Virus record (IMG/VR): IMGVR_UViG_3300033463_000004
Location: 128,001 to 192,000 of that record
DNA length: 64,000 nucleotides
Strand: one strand, 5' to 3'
Source: a virus
Lineage: Duplodnaviria > Caudoviricetes
The notes under the pieces are model-generated. The model was not told where the DNA came from. It did no database searches and was given only the letters and a program-made list of their open reading frames with translations. Of the stretch, positions 47,721-53,138 are shown piece after piece. A program made the position numbers and the translations under genes. Position 1 is the stretch's first letter. Every line of letters begins with the position of its first letter.

Positions 47721-50700
47721 TTATTGACCGTTCCATGTTTTTGCAATTTGACGCTTGAGATTAATCAAGACTTTATTTGCAGCAGCTGTTAATACAACAG
47801 ATGGAATCATTCGCTTTAAGATACTACCTGCCGATACGAACATTGAAATCTCTTCATCAGGATCAGTTTCACCGTATGGTTCCAATCCTTCAGGAACAAT
47901 TTCAGAGATGACTTGTTTTGATGCAGCATAAACAACGCATTTATCTCCGATAGATACATCATCACTATGTTCAATGTATATTTCAACAAGAACATCACAA
48001 CGAATTCCTTTGATTGTTTGACCTGATAAAGGTTGTGTTGGTGCACTATACAATGTTCCCATTTTCATGACAGAATCATTCTTATCATATTTATCGAGAA
48101 TACGACGTTTCTGAATATTGTCTTTGAAATGTTTATCAATTATCTCAAACAATGACGGAGATAATCTGTCAAGTGGTCTGTTTGTATAAATACGAATGTC
48201 TTTTACAACTCCAGCATGTTTAGAACGAACAACACGTTTTGCAGTATCTAAACTACTACCAGCATCACGGAATGCATTCAAGAATGAGTCAACTGCTTTG
48301 TCACCAGTATCTCCCAGACCAAATACGATCAGAGGATCACCGATTTCAATTTCGTCACCAACTTGAACAATCTTTTCAATGTCATCAGTTGCTTCCAATT
48401 TTGATGCTTGACACATTGTCACGTGCGTTCCGAGTCGTTTGGACATTTTATTTGTCATAATGCCAGCATCTTCATACGTGGCATATGTTCCACAGAATGC
48501 GACTTTTGCCAATGGTCCAACATTCATTCTCACCATTCCAGAAGAATCTTTTGAGAAGAATTTGGTATGATATGCAAGAATATCATTCTTCACAAATTTG
48601 TCTCCTTTTTGGAAATTTGATACAAGTTTATTGTCGACATAGAAACCTGAACCAGGATTGAATGAATATCTGGAATTAACCGGTATTGCTTGTTTCTGTT
48701 TTGAATCATATTGTACGATCATGTATCCATCAGCGATATCGAGAACTTGACCATTCTCTTTTGCTGTTACTGCAAATTCATCTGACAAATATGACGCAGC
48801 AATCTCATCAATACCATTTGAAACAAGAACCGGTTGAGCATCGTCAACTGGTAGAATATGTCCAGTTTGTGATGTTGCGATTGCAGTACGAATTGCATCA
48901 TCATGCGTAACAGTTCCTGGTGTTAACAGTTCAGAGAATGATGCAAGTTGTAAATCGTTGAATTCTGTTTCAGATGGGTTATCTGCAACTGTATAACCAC
49001 GGACAGATGATACTTTCGGATCAACTGTAAGTTGACGCACCATACCAACATTTGCAGAGTTTGGTGTTGACATTGCCATCTTACCAATCATCGATTCATC
49101 AAATGAACGTTTTGCTTCTGTGTATGCTTTAGCTTGGTTAACACCGCCATATCCTTTTTTGGTAATAGTTTCATCTTCATGAAGTTCGATCATCGGATTC
49201 AAAGCAGATGATGTTGATACAGTTTCAGTTGCCATCAATTCATTCATGATTGCCATGCGGTTGAATACAAGTTTATTATCGCGCGTTTTTGAACCGACAG
49301 CATTGTTATACTTCGAAATTGCAACCGCGAGATGATAATGAATCATTGCAGGAATAATTTCAGAAGAACGAATTCTGTATAATGATGAATTATTTTCTGA
49401 TGTGAAATTGTTATCTGCTAACATATGTGCGGCATAAATCAACATGTCACAAATGTTATTTGGAACATGATAATGCTGACAAACATCTTCTGTGATTGCA
49501 TCTACGAAGAAATGATAATATGTGATAAATGTTGTGCGTTGTGAATATTGTTTGAAGAATAACTGATTGAAGATATCAACAAATACAGAATTGTCATCCA
49601 TAATTGTCGTCTCAAAATCAGTTGAATTGTACTGACGTGTATTGATGCGATAAAAACCATTGAAAATCAATTGGTTTAAAACCGTATTTTGTATTGCAAG
49701 TGTTCGATCCTTAAAAGGAATCTTTAAGAACCCTGGAACATTCTCTCTCGGTGCAACGTATTTATATTGTGCACCAGAACGTTTTAACAGAGAAGGCATT
49801 CCTTCCCATGCTGCAATAGCAACACCCAACGGAATCAATACACCGATCTTAATATCAGCATACATGGAAAGCTTATTGGGTTTTCCTTTTGTATATAATT
49901 GCACAATATCGGATGGTAAATATTGTGTAATGATTTCTGTAATGGATTTACCATGACGATCCAAACCGGTTTCTGTATTTAAAACAATTGGAACTTGATT
50001 TACCATTCCACAACAGAATTCATTTTCTCCAACTGTGACAAATCCGAAATCACGTTGACATTGATCGCGGTTGAAAATAATTTTACAATTTGCATCTTTA
50101 TTTTCAAACATATACCAACGACGTGCATATTCATCATATTCAATCGTCGAAACGAATCGGTTGTTTGTAACCATTGAACTTCCGTATTGAACATATGGGT
50201 TTTTACCTTTTGAATCGTTCTTTGATGCAACTGCTTTCAGCATCATTGTAATGTCAACAAGAGATTTTGTATCATATCTTGAAACTGTAATCTTGTTGTA
50301 ATTTGTTGTCAGTATTACTTTTTTCTTGTTGATTTTCAAAATCGGAATCGGGAAATCCTGTTTTCCAATATTATAATATGAACCGTTATAAAGAAAACGT
50401 CCGTTGTTCATCACAGGAACAACGATGTCAATATGTGATTGTGAACCAGACCGTTTATTCTTTAAATGTACACGCCAATTATGCATCAATGATATTGGTG
50501 TTGATATATCTGTCACATCAATCTTTGTAACATTAAATCCTTCCGGAAGTTTCTGTAATGTCATGAATGTGGATATAATGTCTTGATCCATCATATTCTC
50601 TTCGTATGCTTGCGCAATTTTTGGAAATGATGTACCACGTTGTGCTCCAGGATTCAATGTTGTAATCTTCGCAGGTTTAATTGGTTCTGGTAACGGGATA

Positions 50701-51926
50701 TCTGTTACAGAACTCAACGAATTCACATTTAAGTCTTTTAATTGAATTTGACCAATATTGGAACGAAGTTGATATTCACGCGCAGATGTTGTTGTACGTA
50801 ATACAGAATCTTCATTCGTTGGTGTACGCATTGTCGCAATTGATTTTGATGCTTGATTAATCAATTGATTTTCAACGGGATTATCACCGCCAACTTCTAG
50901 ATCTGCTGCAATACGTTTATAATTTGAAACGGTTGTTTCGTTTGGAGTGATACGATGTAACAATTGTGTGTTAATATCAAATGTCTTTGCACGATAGATA
51001 CCATCTTTTTCACTACTTCCGGCAGCAATCCCAAACTTATCTTTGATTGCCTGAATCGATGATGATAACTTAGAACGTGTCCCTGATCCACCATTTGTCG
51101 GGGTTGTATCTTGTCCATTATCGTTTTCTGATGTGTTTGCATTAATAGTATCCATCATTTCATCCAACGATTCGTCTTCGTCAATCGATGACGTTGTTCT
51201 TGGACCATTAAATGGTGAACCAATTGAATGACACATTGTATTCAGATTCTCAACATCACTTTCTGATATTGACCTGAGATCCATCTTATAATCAGCAAGG
51301 GTTGATCTGAAAATAACTGTGATATCTTGTGATGTTGGTTTACCAGAACCAGAACGATATGAACCAATCAATCCATTAATCAAATCTGATTTAACCGTTT
51401 CTTCTGAATCATAAATCTTATACCGATCCGTATTTACAATCAGAATCTTTTTCTTTGCACCGGTAAACTGCTGCATCAATGTTGACATCATTTGCGGTGC
51501 ATTTCGTTCAATATATTCTGCAGATAATGATTTCAATGATTGATTTAAATAACGCATCACATCAGACATTGAAATATATACGTCATCCTTAGACAATTTA
51601 TTGATCGGAGGTTTTACAACTTGAATGGCAGGAATCAATTTCTGTTTCATTAAATAATCAACTTTTTTCCGATATTCACTTTCGGAAATAGAATACCGTA
51701 CATTCACGGGTCCTATTTTACTATTTAAAGAATACGGAATTATAATTTTTTTAATTACACGAGGTGGCGGCATTTTCTTAATCAATTCAAGATCATATTC
51801 ATACGAACCTGATACCAAGAAAACCGCCACGTCTTCCGTATCTTTTGGAAGCGTATAAATCGAGCGTGATGCTTGAAAATTCTTTCCAGTGGAAAGATCA
51901 GTTGCTTCCTGATATAAAAAAGACAT
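47721..51926 (-). CDS. Multisubunit RNA polymerase beta-like subunit (probably the virion RNAP) with a long N-terminal extension
   Basis: STPNSANVG, IATSQTGH, 'GPLAKVAF..YATYEDAGI', IGDK..SKQVIS, 'SILKRM'; ends before the beta C-terminal clamp region; RBS AAGGAG before ATG 51926; LYQE|A near the N-terminus. Confidence 0.85.
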   Translation of the reverse strand: MSFLYQEATDLSTGKNFQASRSIYTLPKDTEDVAVFLVSGSYEYDLELIKKMPPPRVIKKIIIPYSLNSKIGPVNVRYSISESEYRKKVDYLMKQKLIPAIQVVKPPINKLSKDDVYISMSDVMRYLNQSLKSLSAEYIERNAPQMMSTLMQQFTGAKKKILIVNTDRYKIYDSEETVKSDLINGLIGSYRSGSGKPTSQDITVIFRSTLADYKMDLRSISESDVENLNTMCHSIGSPFNGPRTTSSIDEDESLDEMMDTINANTSENDNGQDTTPTNGGSGTRSKLSSSIQAIKDKFGIAAGSSEKDGIYRAKTFDINTQLLHRITPNETTVSNYKRIAADLEVGGDNPVENQLINQASKSIATMRTPTNEDSVLRTTTSAREYQLRSNIGQIQLKDLNVNSLSSVTDIPLPEPIKPAKITTLNPGAQRGTSFPKIAQAYEENMMDQDIISTFMTLQKLPEGFNVTKIDVTDISTPISLMHNWRVHLKNKRSGSQSHIDIVVPVMNNGRFLYNGSYYNIGKQDFPIPILKINKKKVILTTNYNKITVSRYDTKSLVDITMMLKAVASKNDSKGKNPYVQYGSSMVTNNRFVSTIEYDEYARRWYMFENKDANCKIIFNRDQCQRDFGFVTVGENEFCCGMVNQVPIVLNTETGLDRHGKSITEIITQYLPSDIVQLYTKGKPNKLSMYADIKIGVLIPLGVAIAAWEGMPSLLKRSGAQYKYVAPRENVPGFLKIPFKDRTLAIQNTVLNQLIFNGFYRINTRQYNSTDFETTIMDDNSVFVDIFNQLFFKQYSQRTTFITYYHFFVDAITEDVCQHYHVPNNICDMLIYAAHMLADNNFTSENNSSLYRIRSSEIIPAMIHYHLAVAISKYNNAVGSKTRDNKLVFNRMAIMNELMATETVSTSSALNPMIELHEDETITKKGYGGVNQAKAYTEAKRSFDESMIGKMAMSTPNSANVGMVRQLTVDPKVSSVRGYTVADNPSETEFNDLQLASFSELLTPGTVTHDDAIRTAIATSQTGHILPVDDAQPVLVSNGIDEIAASYLSDEFAVTAKENGQVLDIADGYMIVQYDSKQKQAIPVNSRYSFNPGSGFYVDNKLVSNFQKGDKFVKNDILAYHTKFFSKDSSGMVRMNVGPLAKVAFCGTYATYEDAGIMTNKMSKRLGTHVTMCQASKLEATDDIEKIVQVGDEIEIGDPLIVFGLGDTGDKAVDSFLNAFRDAGSSLDTAKRVVRSKHAGVVKDIRIYTNRPLDRLSPSLFEIIDKHFKDNIQKRRILDKYDKNDSVMKMGTLYSAPTQPLSGQTIKGIRCDVLVEIYIEHSDDVSIGDKCVVYAASKQVISEIVPEGLEPYGETDPDEEISMFVSAGSILKRMIPSVVLTAAANKVLINLKRQIAKTWNGQ

Positions 51927-51957
51927 ATTATCATCTCCTTGAAAGGTGGGTTTACAA

Positions 51958-52155
51958 ATGAATTCCAAACATACCTATTACCACACTTGCCCATATTGTG
52001 GTGCAAATCTTGATCCTAATGAATCATGTGACTGTCAGTATGAAGTTACAGAAAAGTCTGAGGAAAGTAAAGTGAATAATTCAGATGTATTCTCAAACAA
52101 ACGATCTTCGTTTTGTGACAATGGAAGATATCACAGGAATGAAGGAAGAACTTAA
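51958..52155 (+). CDS. Small Zn-ribbon protein
   Basis: CPYCGANLDPNESCDC; RBS GAAAGGTG. Confidence 0.6.
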   Translation: MNSKHTYYHTCPYCGANLDPNESCDCQYEVTEKSEESKVNNSDVFSNKRSSFCDNGRYHRNEGRT

Positions 52156-52345
52156 TTACGTGATATACAATACAAATCTTCCAACTGAACGACGTACAAT
52201 GCTTTTTCAAGCTTATATGTCAAAAAAATATCCACACAAATTCTCAAAACAAGAATTGGAACATTTGATGTCTTTTGACATGTTCCATTTAAAAGATTTC
52301 ATTCAAACTGCCCGGAAATATATTGGTCTTCCGGAACGTACCTAA
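52085..52345 (+). CDS. Hypothetical protein (start uncertain)
   Basis: ORF fills the gap; weak RBS. Confidence 0.4.
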   Translation: MYSQTNDLRFVTMEDITGMKEELNYVIYNTNLPTERRTMLFQAYMSKKYPHKFSKQELEHLMSFDMFHLKDFIQTARKYIGLPERT

Positions 52346-52353
52346 ACGTAATT

Positions 52354-52537
52354 TCAGAATGGTCAACCATGGGTATGTAAACCTCCTTTCTTAATAAAGT
52401 CTATTCGGTACCTCCTGCTTGGCAACAGAATTTCGGGTGTTCGGTCATCATAAACTTGCGTACTGGGCCACGCAAGTTATTGACCATTCTGAGAGAAGAT
52501 GATGACGGCGGGGAAACCCGCCGTCTCATTCTTTTTT
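52354..52537 (+). ncRNA. Candidate small RNA with two anti-Shine-Dalgarno motifs
   Basis: 13-bp perfect closing stem (52354-66/52480-92); ACCTCCTTTC and TACCTCCT in the loop; 9-bp hairpin at 52453-78; AAACG-N6-CA at its 5' end; GAAA-loop terminator at 52504-52537. Confidence 0.55.
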
Positions 52538-53138
52538 ATTCGTCATCATCGATAAATTCTGCACACAGCATTCCACCACTCATATTCACAAGTCGTTGAA
52601 CAGTCGATATTGATATAATCATTTTCGATCGTTCTTCCGGTGATGACTTATAGAATTTTGATACAAGTTGTGATACATTATTCACAATTGTCGGTTTTAA
52701 AGTTTCCGTCATTTTCCGTCTAATGTCAGATGGAGTTATTTTATAATATTCTAAAATATCTCCAAACATTTGAGTGAAGTTAATTGGTTCTTTGTAGAAA
52801 AACCATTCAAATGATCTTTCAAATGTATCACTATCATATCGATCCAACCACACATAGCAATATATTTTTGGTTGTTTAATATGAATAATTTCCAATACCT
52901 CTTGTAATTTTGATTGAGATATTGTATTCGTTTCAGAATTTAATAACTTCACGAGTCTGTCATTCAATGTTGTCAATTTGATTGTACCGTAATCTACGGC
53001 TTTACATAATGCTGACATCAGGATATCATTGTTGACTTTCTTGGAAAAATCAACAACTGGTTTGATATCAACGACATCATGTAACTTCTCAACAGATTCT
53101 TTTGTAATCATTGCTTTTGCTTCTTCCAAAGTCAACAT
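52536..53138 (-). CDS. Early hypothetical protein (possible HTH-like domains)
   Basis: RBS AAGGAGG; TATATAATT at 53196-53204 and a 5' hairpin GTGTCATG/CATGACAC. Confidence 0.7.
   Translation of the reverse strand: MLTLEEAKAMITKESVEKLHDVVDIKPVVDFSKKVNNDILMSALCKAVDYGTIKLTTLNDRLVKLLNSETNTISQSKLQEVLEIIHIKQPKIYCYVWLDRYDSDTFERSFEWFFYKEPINFTQMFGDILEYYKITPSDIRRKMTETLKPTIVNNVSQLVSKFYKSSPEERSKMIISISTVQRLVNMSGGMLCAEFIDDDE

Follow-up and report, generated by a model that had tools for sequence, protein, structure and literature searches.

The 190-nt gap between two convergent transcription units of a 263-kb jumbo phage raises the question of what this DNA encodes, on which strand and to what effect. The window, i.e., the whole 64,000-nt stretch of DNA that was analyzed, covers positions 128001-192000 within a virus record of 262,694 bp (G+C 37%). 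As judged from sequence comparisons, the source phage is a distant relative of phages of the PBS1/AR9 and Staphylococcus S6 type. Its RNA polymerase beta subunit gene (rpoB, 47721-51968, - strand) was recognized as that of a jumbo phage (PHROG 3148, E 3e-137), and the encoded protein was at most 30% identical to those of Staphylococcus S6-type phages, Bacillus PBS1 and Listeria LPJP1. The gap itself is bounded on one side by p65 (51958..52155, + strand) and p86 (52085..52345, + strand; stop codon 52343-52345) and on the other by p200 (52536..53138, - strand). The first gene of the p65-p86 operon, which is preceded by the ribosome-binding site (RBS) GAAAGGTGGG, encodes a small Cys-rich (zinc-ribbon-like) protein with homologs at every syntenic locus by tblastn, no Pfam family and one weak PHROG match of unknown function. 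Homologs of p86 were likewise noted at all syntenic loci, and neither p86 nor p200 was assigned to a known family by family searches or given a usable function by ESM Atlas look-up. Concerning the start of rpoB (window 51924-51968), ATG 51926 (MSFLYQEA..., RBS AAGGAG) appeared most likely, rather than TTG 51968. With this ATG, translation of rpoB and of the divergent p65 would start just 31 nt apart, and the promoter of each gene would have to sit within the coding region of the other.

A sequence-only reading of the gap had listed a 13-bp stem, the sequences AAACCTCCTTTCTT and TACCTCCT within it, a 9-bp hairpin, a terminator with a GAAA loop and, on the opposite strand, a 23-aa ORF. Each of these features was present as described, and the stem was found to enclose exactly 113 nt. 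The conservation of this arrangement was evident from syntenic loci gathered from IMG/VR, JGI metagenomes, Logan and ENA with p200 as the handle. Thus, 20 additional contigs of uncultured jumbo phages, all from metagenomes, carried a homologous element at the syntenic position (21 members including that of the window), and the gene order rpoB, p65, p86, element, terminator, p200 was kept across related contigs. The element, which is single-copy in the window genome, is 139 nt long there and approximately 120-170 bases long across members, the interiors of which varied around a common overall plan. Within the element-bearing sub-clade, p200 was about 58-73% identical to that of the window. The gap in other relatives held either the terminator alone (L054, L057, L058, L071) or extra small genes, which indicates that the element is optional and limited to one sub-clade.

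Searches of the whole window against Rfam 15 at gathering score gave no match, including none to the RsaE/RoxS, LhrC and RNAIII families. With E values up to 10 allowed, the best match over the element was to U8 (15.7 bits, E 1.7, compared with a gathering score of 41), and the best in the region was to BSnc120 (18.8 bits, E 0.14), on the terminator. No tRNA or tmRNA was detected, blastn against known phages gave no match, and a scan of IMG/VR for the pattern TAGACTT-N-AGAAAGGAGG returned, beyond two known relatives, ordinary RBSs only. A covariance model (R1) built from four members (subgroup A) picked up A-type members only and recovered two independent ones from other datasets, with scores of 74 and 55 bits. 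The element is a previously uncatalogued RNA family; the anti-Shine-Dalgarno (anti-SD) regulatory theme itself is already familiar. Likenesses to MITEs, integron attC sites, retrons and phi29 pRNA were considered and dropped for want of multiple copies, partner genes or conserved ends, as was a hammerhead or C/D-box likeness on the minus strand (AUGAUGA...CUGA), which fell under every threshold and was not conserved.

The common plan of the element consisted, from 5' to 3', of a TAAT(T/C) edge, the 5' arm of an outer stem (P1), a hairpin or single strand, the anti-SD core, one or two hairpins, the 3' arm of P1, a spacer and the terminator. The edge, represented in the window by the TAATT junction motif (52349..52353, + strand), was invariant in the first ten members (alignments A2 and A3) and read TAATT or TAATC in 19 of 21. 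In the window, its TAA lies in frame with p86 and provides this gene with a second stop, and its TT opens the extended outer stem. By reading of the sequences, this TAA was in frame with p86, or was its stop, in 11 of the 19 members, and in two it was the p86 stop codon itself. P1, which starts 8 nt beyond the p86 stop codon in the window, is there a perfect stem of 13 bp (52354..52366 with 52480..52492, + strand) that extends to 15 bp, from 52352 to 52494, with one U.G pair; its length across members was 10-18 bp. The region 5' of the core formed a hairpin whose loop reads YCCAUNYC, except in subgroup A, where it was represented by a single-stranded CAUGGGU. The CCAUGGGUA motif of the window (52367..52375, + strand) was conserved in this subgroup, and its GGGU may, according to the modeled fold, pair with the ACCU of the core and so partly mask it. 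In 12-13 of 20 members, a second pyrimidine motif, YCCAU, was located in an apical loop. One or two more hairpins of variable sequence followed the core, and inner hairpin Pc of the window (52453..52478, + strand; 52453-52461 with 52470-52478, 9 bp, 8-nt loop) had equivalents of different sequence in homologs. Beyond the 3' arm of P1, a spacer rich in A led to the terminator, the hairpin of which was G+C-rich. The intrinsic terminator of the window (52504..52537, + strand) has a 9-bp G+C stem and GAAA loop (hairpin 52504-52525) followed by a T tract, and it extends into the stop codon of p200, the convergent gene.

Since MAFFT did not align the full set of members well enough for a single covariance model, family-wide covariation was measured on P1 anchored at its conserved TT...AA ends. 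Base pairing was noted at 169 of 170 positions in 17 sequences. When the partners of P1 arms were swapped between genomes, 6.9 of 10 positions paired, and none of 100000 permutations matched the observed total. Each of P1 positions 3-10 was represented by 2-5 pair types. The covariation analysis suggested in the sequence-only reading thus bore out its stem, and P1 covaries strongly. Similar results were obtained from an Infernal alignment of subgroup A, in which 94% of cells were paired and 11 of 15 pairs had changed on both sides, compared with 32-52% pairing in slid registers; the observed values were reached by none of 500 shuffles for four of five measures and by one of 500 for the fifth. 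Fold stability also exceeded that of shuffled sequences on both strands (z -4.7 for + and -5.7 for -).

These findings bear on the proposal that the element acts, if at all, as DNA, i.e., that it has no function as RNA and is what remains of a cassette of small genes, or else a recombination site or a miniature inverted-repeat element. Its presence or absence does vary at a hot spot where other relatives have extra small genes, its ends are terminal inverted repeats, and one member (L121) contains an inserted RBS and 13-codon ORF. However, only one copy was found per genome, and the inverted repeats differed between genomes yet stayed complementary, which is covariation rather than conservation of ends. 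Together with an asymmetry of wobble pairs that indicates RNA, described below, these observations make a DNA-level element very improbable.

The strand of this RNA was evident from several features. A strand-symmetric search for P1 in the 21 members gave, in the + orientation, 249 Watson-Crick, 11 G.U and 3 A.C pairs, i.e., wobble pairs in P1 favored the + strand by 11 to 3. The corresponding asymmetry over all helices of the first ten members was weak (11 to 8 for +), and in subgroup B (L055, L076, L077 and L063) wobble pairs leaned to the minus orientation. The decisive case is locus L120, where p200 alone is inverted, so that a single orientation is shared by p86, the element, a terminator, an AT-rich stretch resembling a promoter, and p200; here, the element and terminator were still directly 3' of p86 and in the sense orientation. 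A terminator scan of the window called 52504-52525 and its T tract on the + strand only, and a T-rich tail followed the terminator hairpin on this strand in most members. The terminator loop was of the GNRA or UNCG type on the + strand in 13 of 21 members and on the minus strand in none. Among 31 terminators of the window genome, such loops showed no orientation preference (six sense, four antisense), and loop orientation therefore provides weak support only. P1 started 0-15 nt past the p86 stop codon in nearly all members. Taken together, the P1 wobble pairs, the arrangement in L120, the position relative to the p86 stop codon and the tails and loops of the terminators assign the RNA to the + strand, where it forms the 3'UTR of the message for p65 and p86. 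That the element is a real structured RNA of the + strand is thus very probable, and the discrete + strand RNA postulated from the sequence is supported by its homologs in 20 contigs, the covariation of P1 and the strand specificity of the terminator.

The same sequences were considered as a minus-strand product, i.e., read-through from the p200 operon into a strong RBS enclosed by a stem, which would drive synthesis of a small peptide or act as a stabilizer of the STAB-SD type. The complement of the core is the canonical RBS of the phage and is followed by an ATG in most members, the two strands fold equally well, subgroup B has more wobble pairs in the minus orientation, the genome contains two further units in which a stem encloses an RBS and a small ORF, and a real-looking small ORF occupies the site in L072 and L073. 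The ORFs behind the core complement, however, varied in length (3 codons (MGN), 7, 14, 17, 22, 23 and about 45-50), were in different frames, encoded nothing hydrophobic and began 5-22 nt from the core complement, and the ATG is part of the separately conserved CCAU motif of the + strand. The 23-aa ORF of the window (52299..52370, - strand), for which the sequence-only reading had allowed an SD-rich leader, was judged not to be a gene on account of these variable lengths, frames and spacings. Moreover, a minus-strand transcript would reach the element only past the p200 terminator, and in several relatives (e.g., L055, L063 and L070) this terminator is followed by a good T tract in that direction; transcription in L120 would have to cross all of p200 in the antisense direction; the P1 wobble pairs, at 11 to 3, point the other way; and nothing save antisense p86 lies downstream to be stabilized. 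A minus-strand product is accordingly improbable.

With the + strand settled, the origin of the RNA could be addressed. The sequence-only reading had assigned the element a late promoter of its own, AAACG-N6-CA, with transcription starting at the outer stem. In the whole genome, AAACG-N6-TA was enriched before genes with strong RBSs, 13 of 41 copies being intergenic compared with about 2.5 expected. The element matches this motif only by half, since its copy at 52344-52356 has C at -1; the CA variant was not enriched (5 of 54 copies intergenic), and the upstream pentamer AAACG was absent from homologs of the element. A sigma-70-like site was not found on the + strand at the element. For these reasons, a promoter of its own, as expected of an independent small RNA gene, was rejected. 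An AR9-type late promoter was rejected also, the AACG-N6-C of the element, with C at -1, being off the AR9 late consensus AACA-N6-T(A/G) (PMC7598289). The genuine phage motif, as (A)AAACG-N6-TAA, was noted about 25-45 nt upstream of start codons (e.g., window 33883, 30281 and 46471, all on the - strand) and resembles that consensus. The beginning of the element 0-15 nt after the p86 stop codon indicates that it is first of all a 3'UTR, and other features of a 3'UTR held as well, i.e., a fixed place after the stop codon, sense orientation, a terminator next to it and linkage to p86 when neighboring genes are rearranged. A separate RNA may be processed from the p65-p86 mRNA.

A 3'UTR in this position could simply be a stabilizer or terminator-associated structure of the p65-p86 mRNA, protecting it from exonucleases or insulating convergent transcription, with the core needed for folding or protein binding. 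The constant place of the element, right after the stop codon and ahead of the terminator, is what such a structure would show, and its optional occurrence, with close relatives having only the terminator, is also consistent with this role. An invariant single-stranded sequence of 8-10 nt, on the other hand, is not needed for it, and the interior helices vary freely whereas the core does not. We therefore regard a mainly structural role as quite unlikely.

The core, ACCTCCTTTC (52381..52390, + strand), lies within AAACCTCCTTTCTT (52379-52392, + strand). In the form CTCCTTTC it was invariant in the first 10 of 10 members and kept in 19 of 21, while flanks and interior helices varied; an A preceded CCUCC in about 17 of 21 members, hence the notation (A)CCUCCUUUC. 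The core is identical over ten letters to the 3' tail of Bacillota 16S rRNA, ACCUCCUUUC. It is also the exact complement of GAAAGGAG(G), the word most enriched upstream of the phage's own genes. Thus, the RBS consensus complementary to the core, GAAAGGAGG(U), is that of the phage itself and presumably of its host as well. The remaining three copies of AGAAAGGAGG in the genome are true RBSs. The probability of being unpaired was predicted to be 0.75 for CCUCC, compared with 0.41 for the whole element, and ranged from 0.28 to 1.0 between members; the core was often placed in a short hairpin loop by the same predictions. Of the two anti-SD sequences recognized in the sequence-only reading, the first is thus conserved, in 19 of 21 members, as a copy of the 16S tail, whereas the second CCUCC (TACCTCCT, 52409-52416, + strand) was found in the window genome alone, in a segment absent from homologs.

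Taken as a whole, the element is best explained as an anti-SD RNA borne on the 3'UTR, and possibly released from it, that would repress translation, an explanation to which we assign a probability of roughly 0.5. The element forms the 3' untranslated end of the p65-p86 mRNA, with P1 closing a multi-branched fold directly before the intrinsic terminator, and its compact body and terminator could persist as a 3'UTR-derived small RNA. The fold would present ACCUCCUUUC in a loop or junction, from which the core could pair with Shine-Dalgarno (SD) regions of mRNAs and so block 30S binding and repress translation, either of its own operon or in trans. By analogy with the C-rich small RNAs of Bacillota, SD pairing would be the simplest use of an invariant anti-SD that is predicted to be exposed, and we put action through such pairing at close to an even chance.

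Candidate targets were sought in two ways. The p65 initiation region showed no co-evolution with the flanks of the element, own pairs having a mean duplex energy of -15.0 kcal/mol and cross pairs one of -15.6 kcal/mol (p 0.82), and a genome-wide ranking of duplexes followed SD strength only and indicated no specific target. Counting further against the explanation as an SD-pairing repressor, a generic anti-SD would also hit the late genes of the phage itself, and the core would be equally conserved if it were read by a protein.

The latter consideration leads to a different use of the same sequence, i.e., as a decoy of the 16S tail that titrates a tail-recognizing protein and does not pair with mRNA. 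This protein could be a factor bound to ribosomes, a nuclease that serves maturation, quality control, host defense or as a toxin, or a protein of the phage, e.g., p65, p86 or p200. The ten-letter match to the tail, including the A before CCUCC in about 17 of 21 members, the drift of all flanks around an invariant core and the failure of both the duplex ranking and the p65 co-evolution analysis to yield a specific mRNA target are in keeping with a decoy. The conserved stretch, however, is exactly the part that pairs with an RBS, so that pairing explains it equally well; no resemblance to helix 45 or to other parts of the 16S 3' domain was seen outside the core, and no Rfam rRNA family was matched; and p65, p86 and p200 belong to no recognizable RNA-binding family. 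A decoy is therefore unlikely. The broader claim that a true 16S 3'-tail mimic reprograms translation globally, whether as a broad mask of SD sequences that would shift translation between host, early and late messages or as a decoy for a host factor or defense nuclease, is rather doubtful on the evidence of the sequences compared here.

The proposed repressor can be compared with several known regulators. RsaE/RoxS, the hairpins of Staphylococcus aureus RNAIII and Listeria LhrC are C-rich RNAs that pair with G-rich ribosome-binding sites. The element appears to resemble them in having a pyrimidine- or C-rich motif in a loop or unpaired region, a compact body and an intrinsic terminator at its end. 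It differs in that its motif, instead of UCCC or CCCC, reproduces the 16S tail over a full 10 nt, in that it is phage-borne and located in a 3'UTR with no promoter of its own detected, in that its body is closed by a long covarying stem and in lacking any sequence or structure match to an Rfam family. The 3'UTR of S. aureus icaR reportedly contains an anti-SD motif that pairs with the 5'UTR of its own mRNA. The element would be similar in carrying an anti-SD in the 3'UTR of a protein-coding mRNA, an arrangement that would allow self-repression in cis, but it did not co-vary with the RBS of its own operon and it is a large autonomous fold, whereas the icaR motif is short. STAB-SD or polypurine 5' stabilizers occur in Bacillus, e.g., in the cryIIIA leader and the early RNA of phage SP82. 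The core of the element, read on the minus strand, would be SD-like in the same manner, with no tie to a conserved ORF; unlike these stabilizers, however, the element has its RNA on the other strand according to the strand evidence, and nothing lies downstream of it to be stabilized.

The element can thus be recognized as a conserved phage RNA family with a clear structure, a settled strand and an invariant 10-letter motif that corresponds to the mRNA-docking tail of the ribosome. To our knowledge, few small RNAs have been described from virulent phages, and almost none from jumbo phages of Gram-positive-type hosts. If SD masking is its function, the phage would make a regulator of translation that is carried at the 3' end of an mRNA, next to phage RNA polymerase genes, and mutation of CCUCC would offer a simple handle on the timing or redirection of translation by giant phages. 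Even as no more than a structure of the 3' end, the element would be a new RNA motif for catalogues.

Several further observations were made at this and related sites. The element of L121 (1784-2120, on the minus strand of the locus) was enlarged and its core was degenerate (ACCUCCCCCUCUCUUUC); its inserted RBS and 13-codon ORF (MKHTIVISTAFMA) were reminiscent of the small peptides MSEIVIITIPVDTEIICE and MTEEIVIIQIPKGTEIICE. The latter correspond to the conserved small ORFs, each preceded by an RBS, of the two stem-enclosed units of this phage (window 46538-46701, + strand; genome 193281-193467, + strand). Both units are in 5' leaders after AT-rich promoter-like motifs and belong to a different family from the element, with which they have in common the design of a long stem that closes the unit. 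In L072 and L073, an RBS (AAAGAAAGGAG) and a small ORF, MNNQSY(I/V)VVERTVIP..., took the place of the element directly after p200 and on the p200 strand; this ORF includes an 11-bp hairpin with a CCUCC loop, and p86 was not adjacent in L072.

Words enriched upstream of genes were AT-rich, i.e., ATACTATA(T) and, in divergent gaps, the palindromic TATATTAT and ATAATATA. These words may be an early (virion RNA polymerase) promoter motif. GTAATTYC, considered as a general promoter word, showed no enrichment upstream of genes and was rejected. The rearrangement in L120 (536-1794) is a local single-gene inversion in which p200 has its own promoter-like TATATTAT stretch and its own terminator. Finally, a palindrome, AATATATT (window 52324-52331), preceded TAATT by 23-25 nt in nine of the first ten members; in L052, where it read AAATTATTT, the distance was 28 nt. 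As a separate signal, AATATATT was discarded, since it is mostly accounted for by conserved Tyr-Ile codons of p86; what is left over is its spacing to TAATT, which was constant although the C-terminal tails of p86 vary in length.
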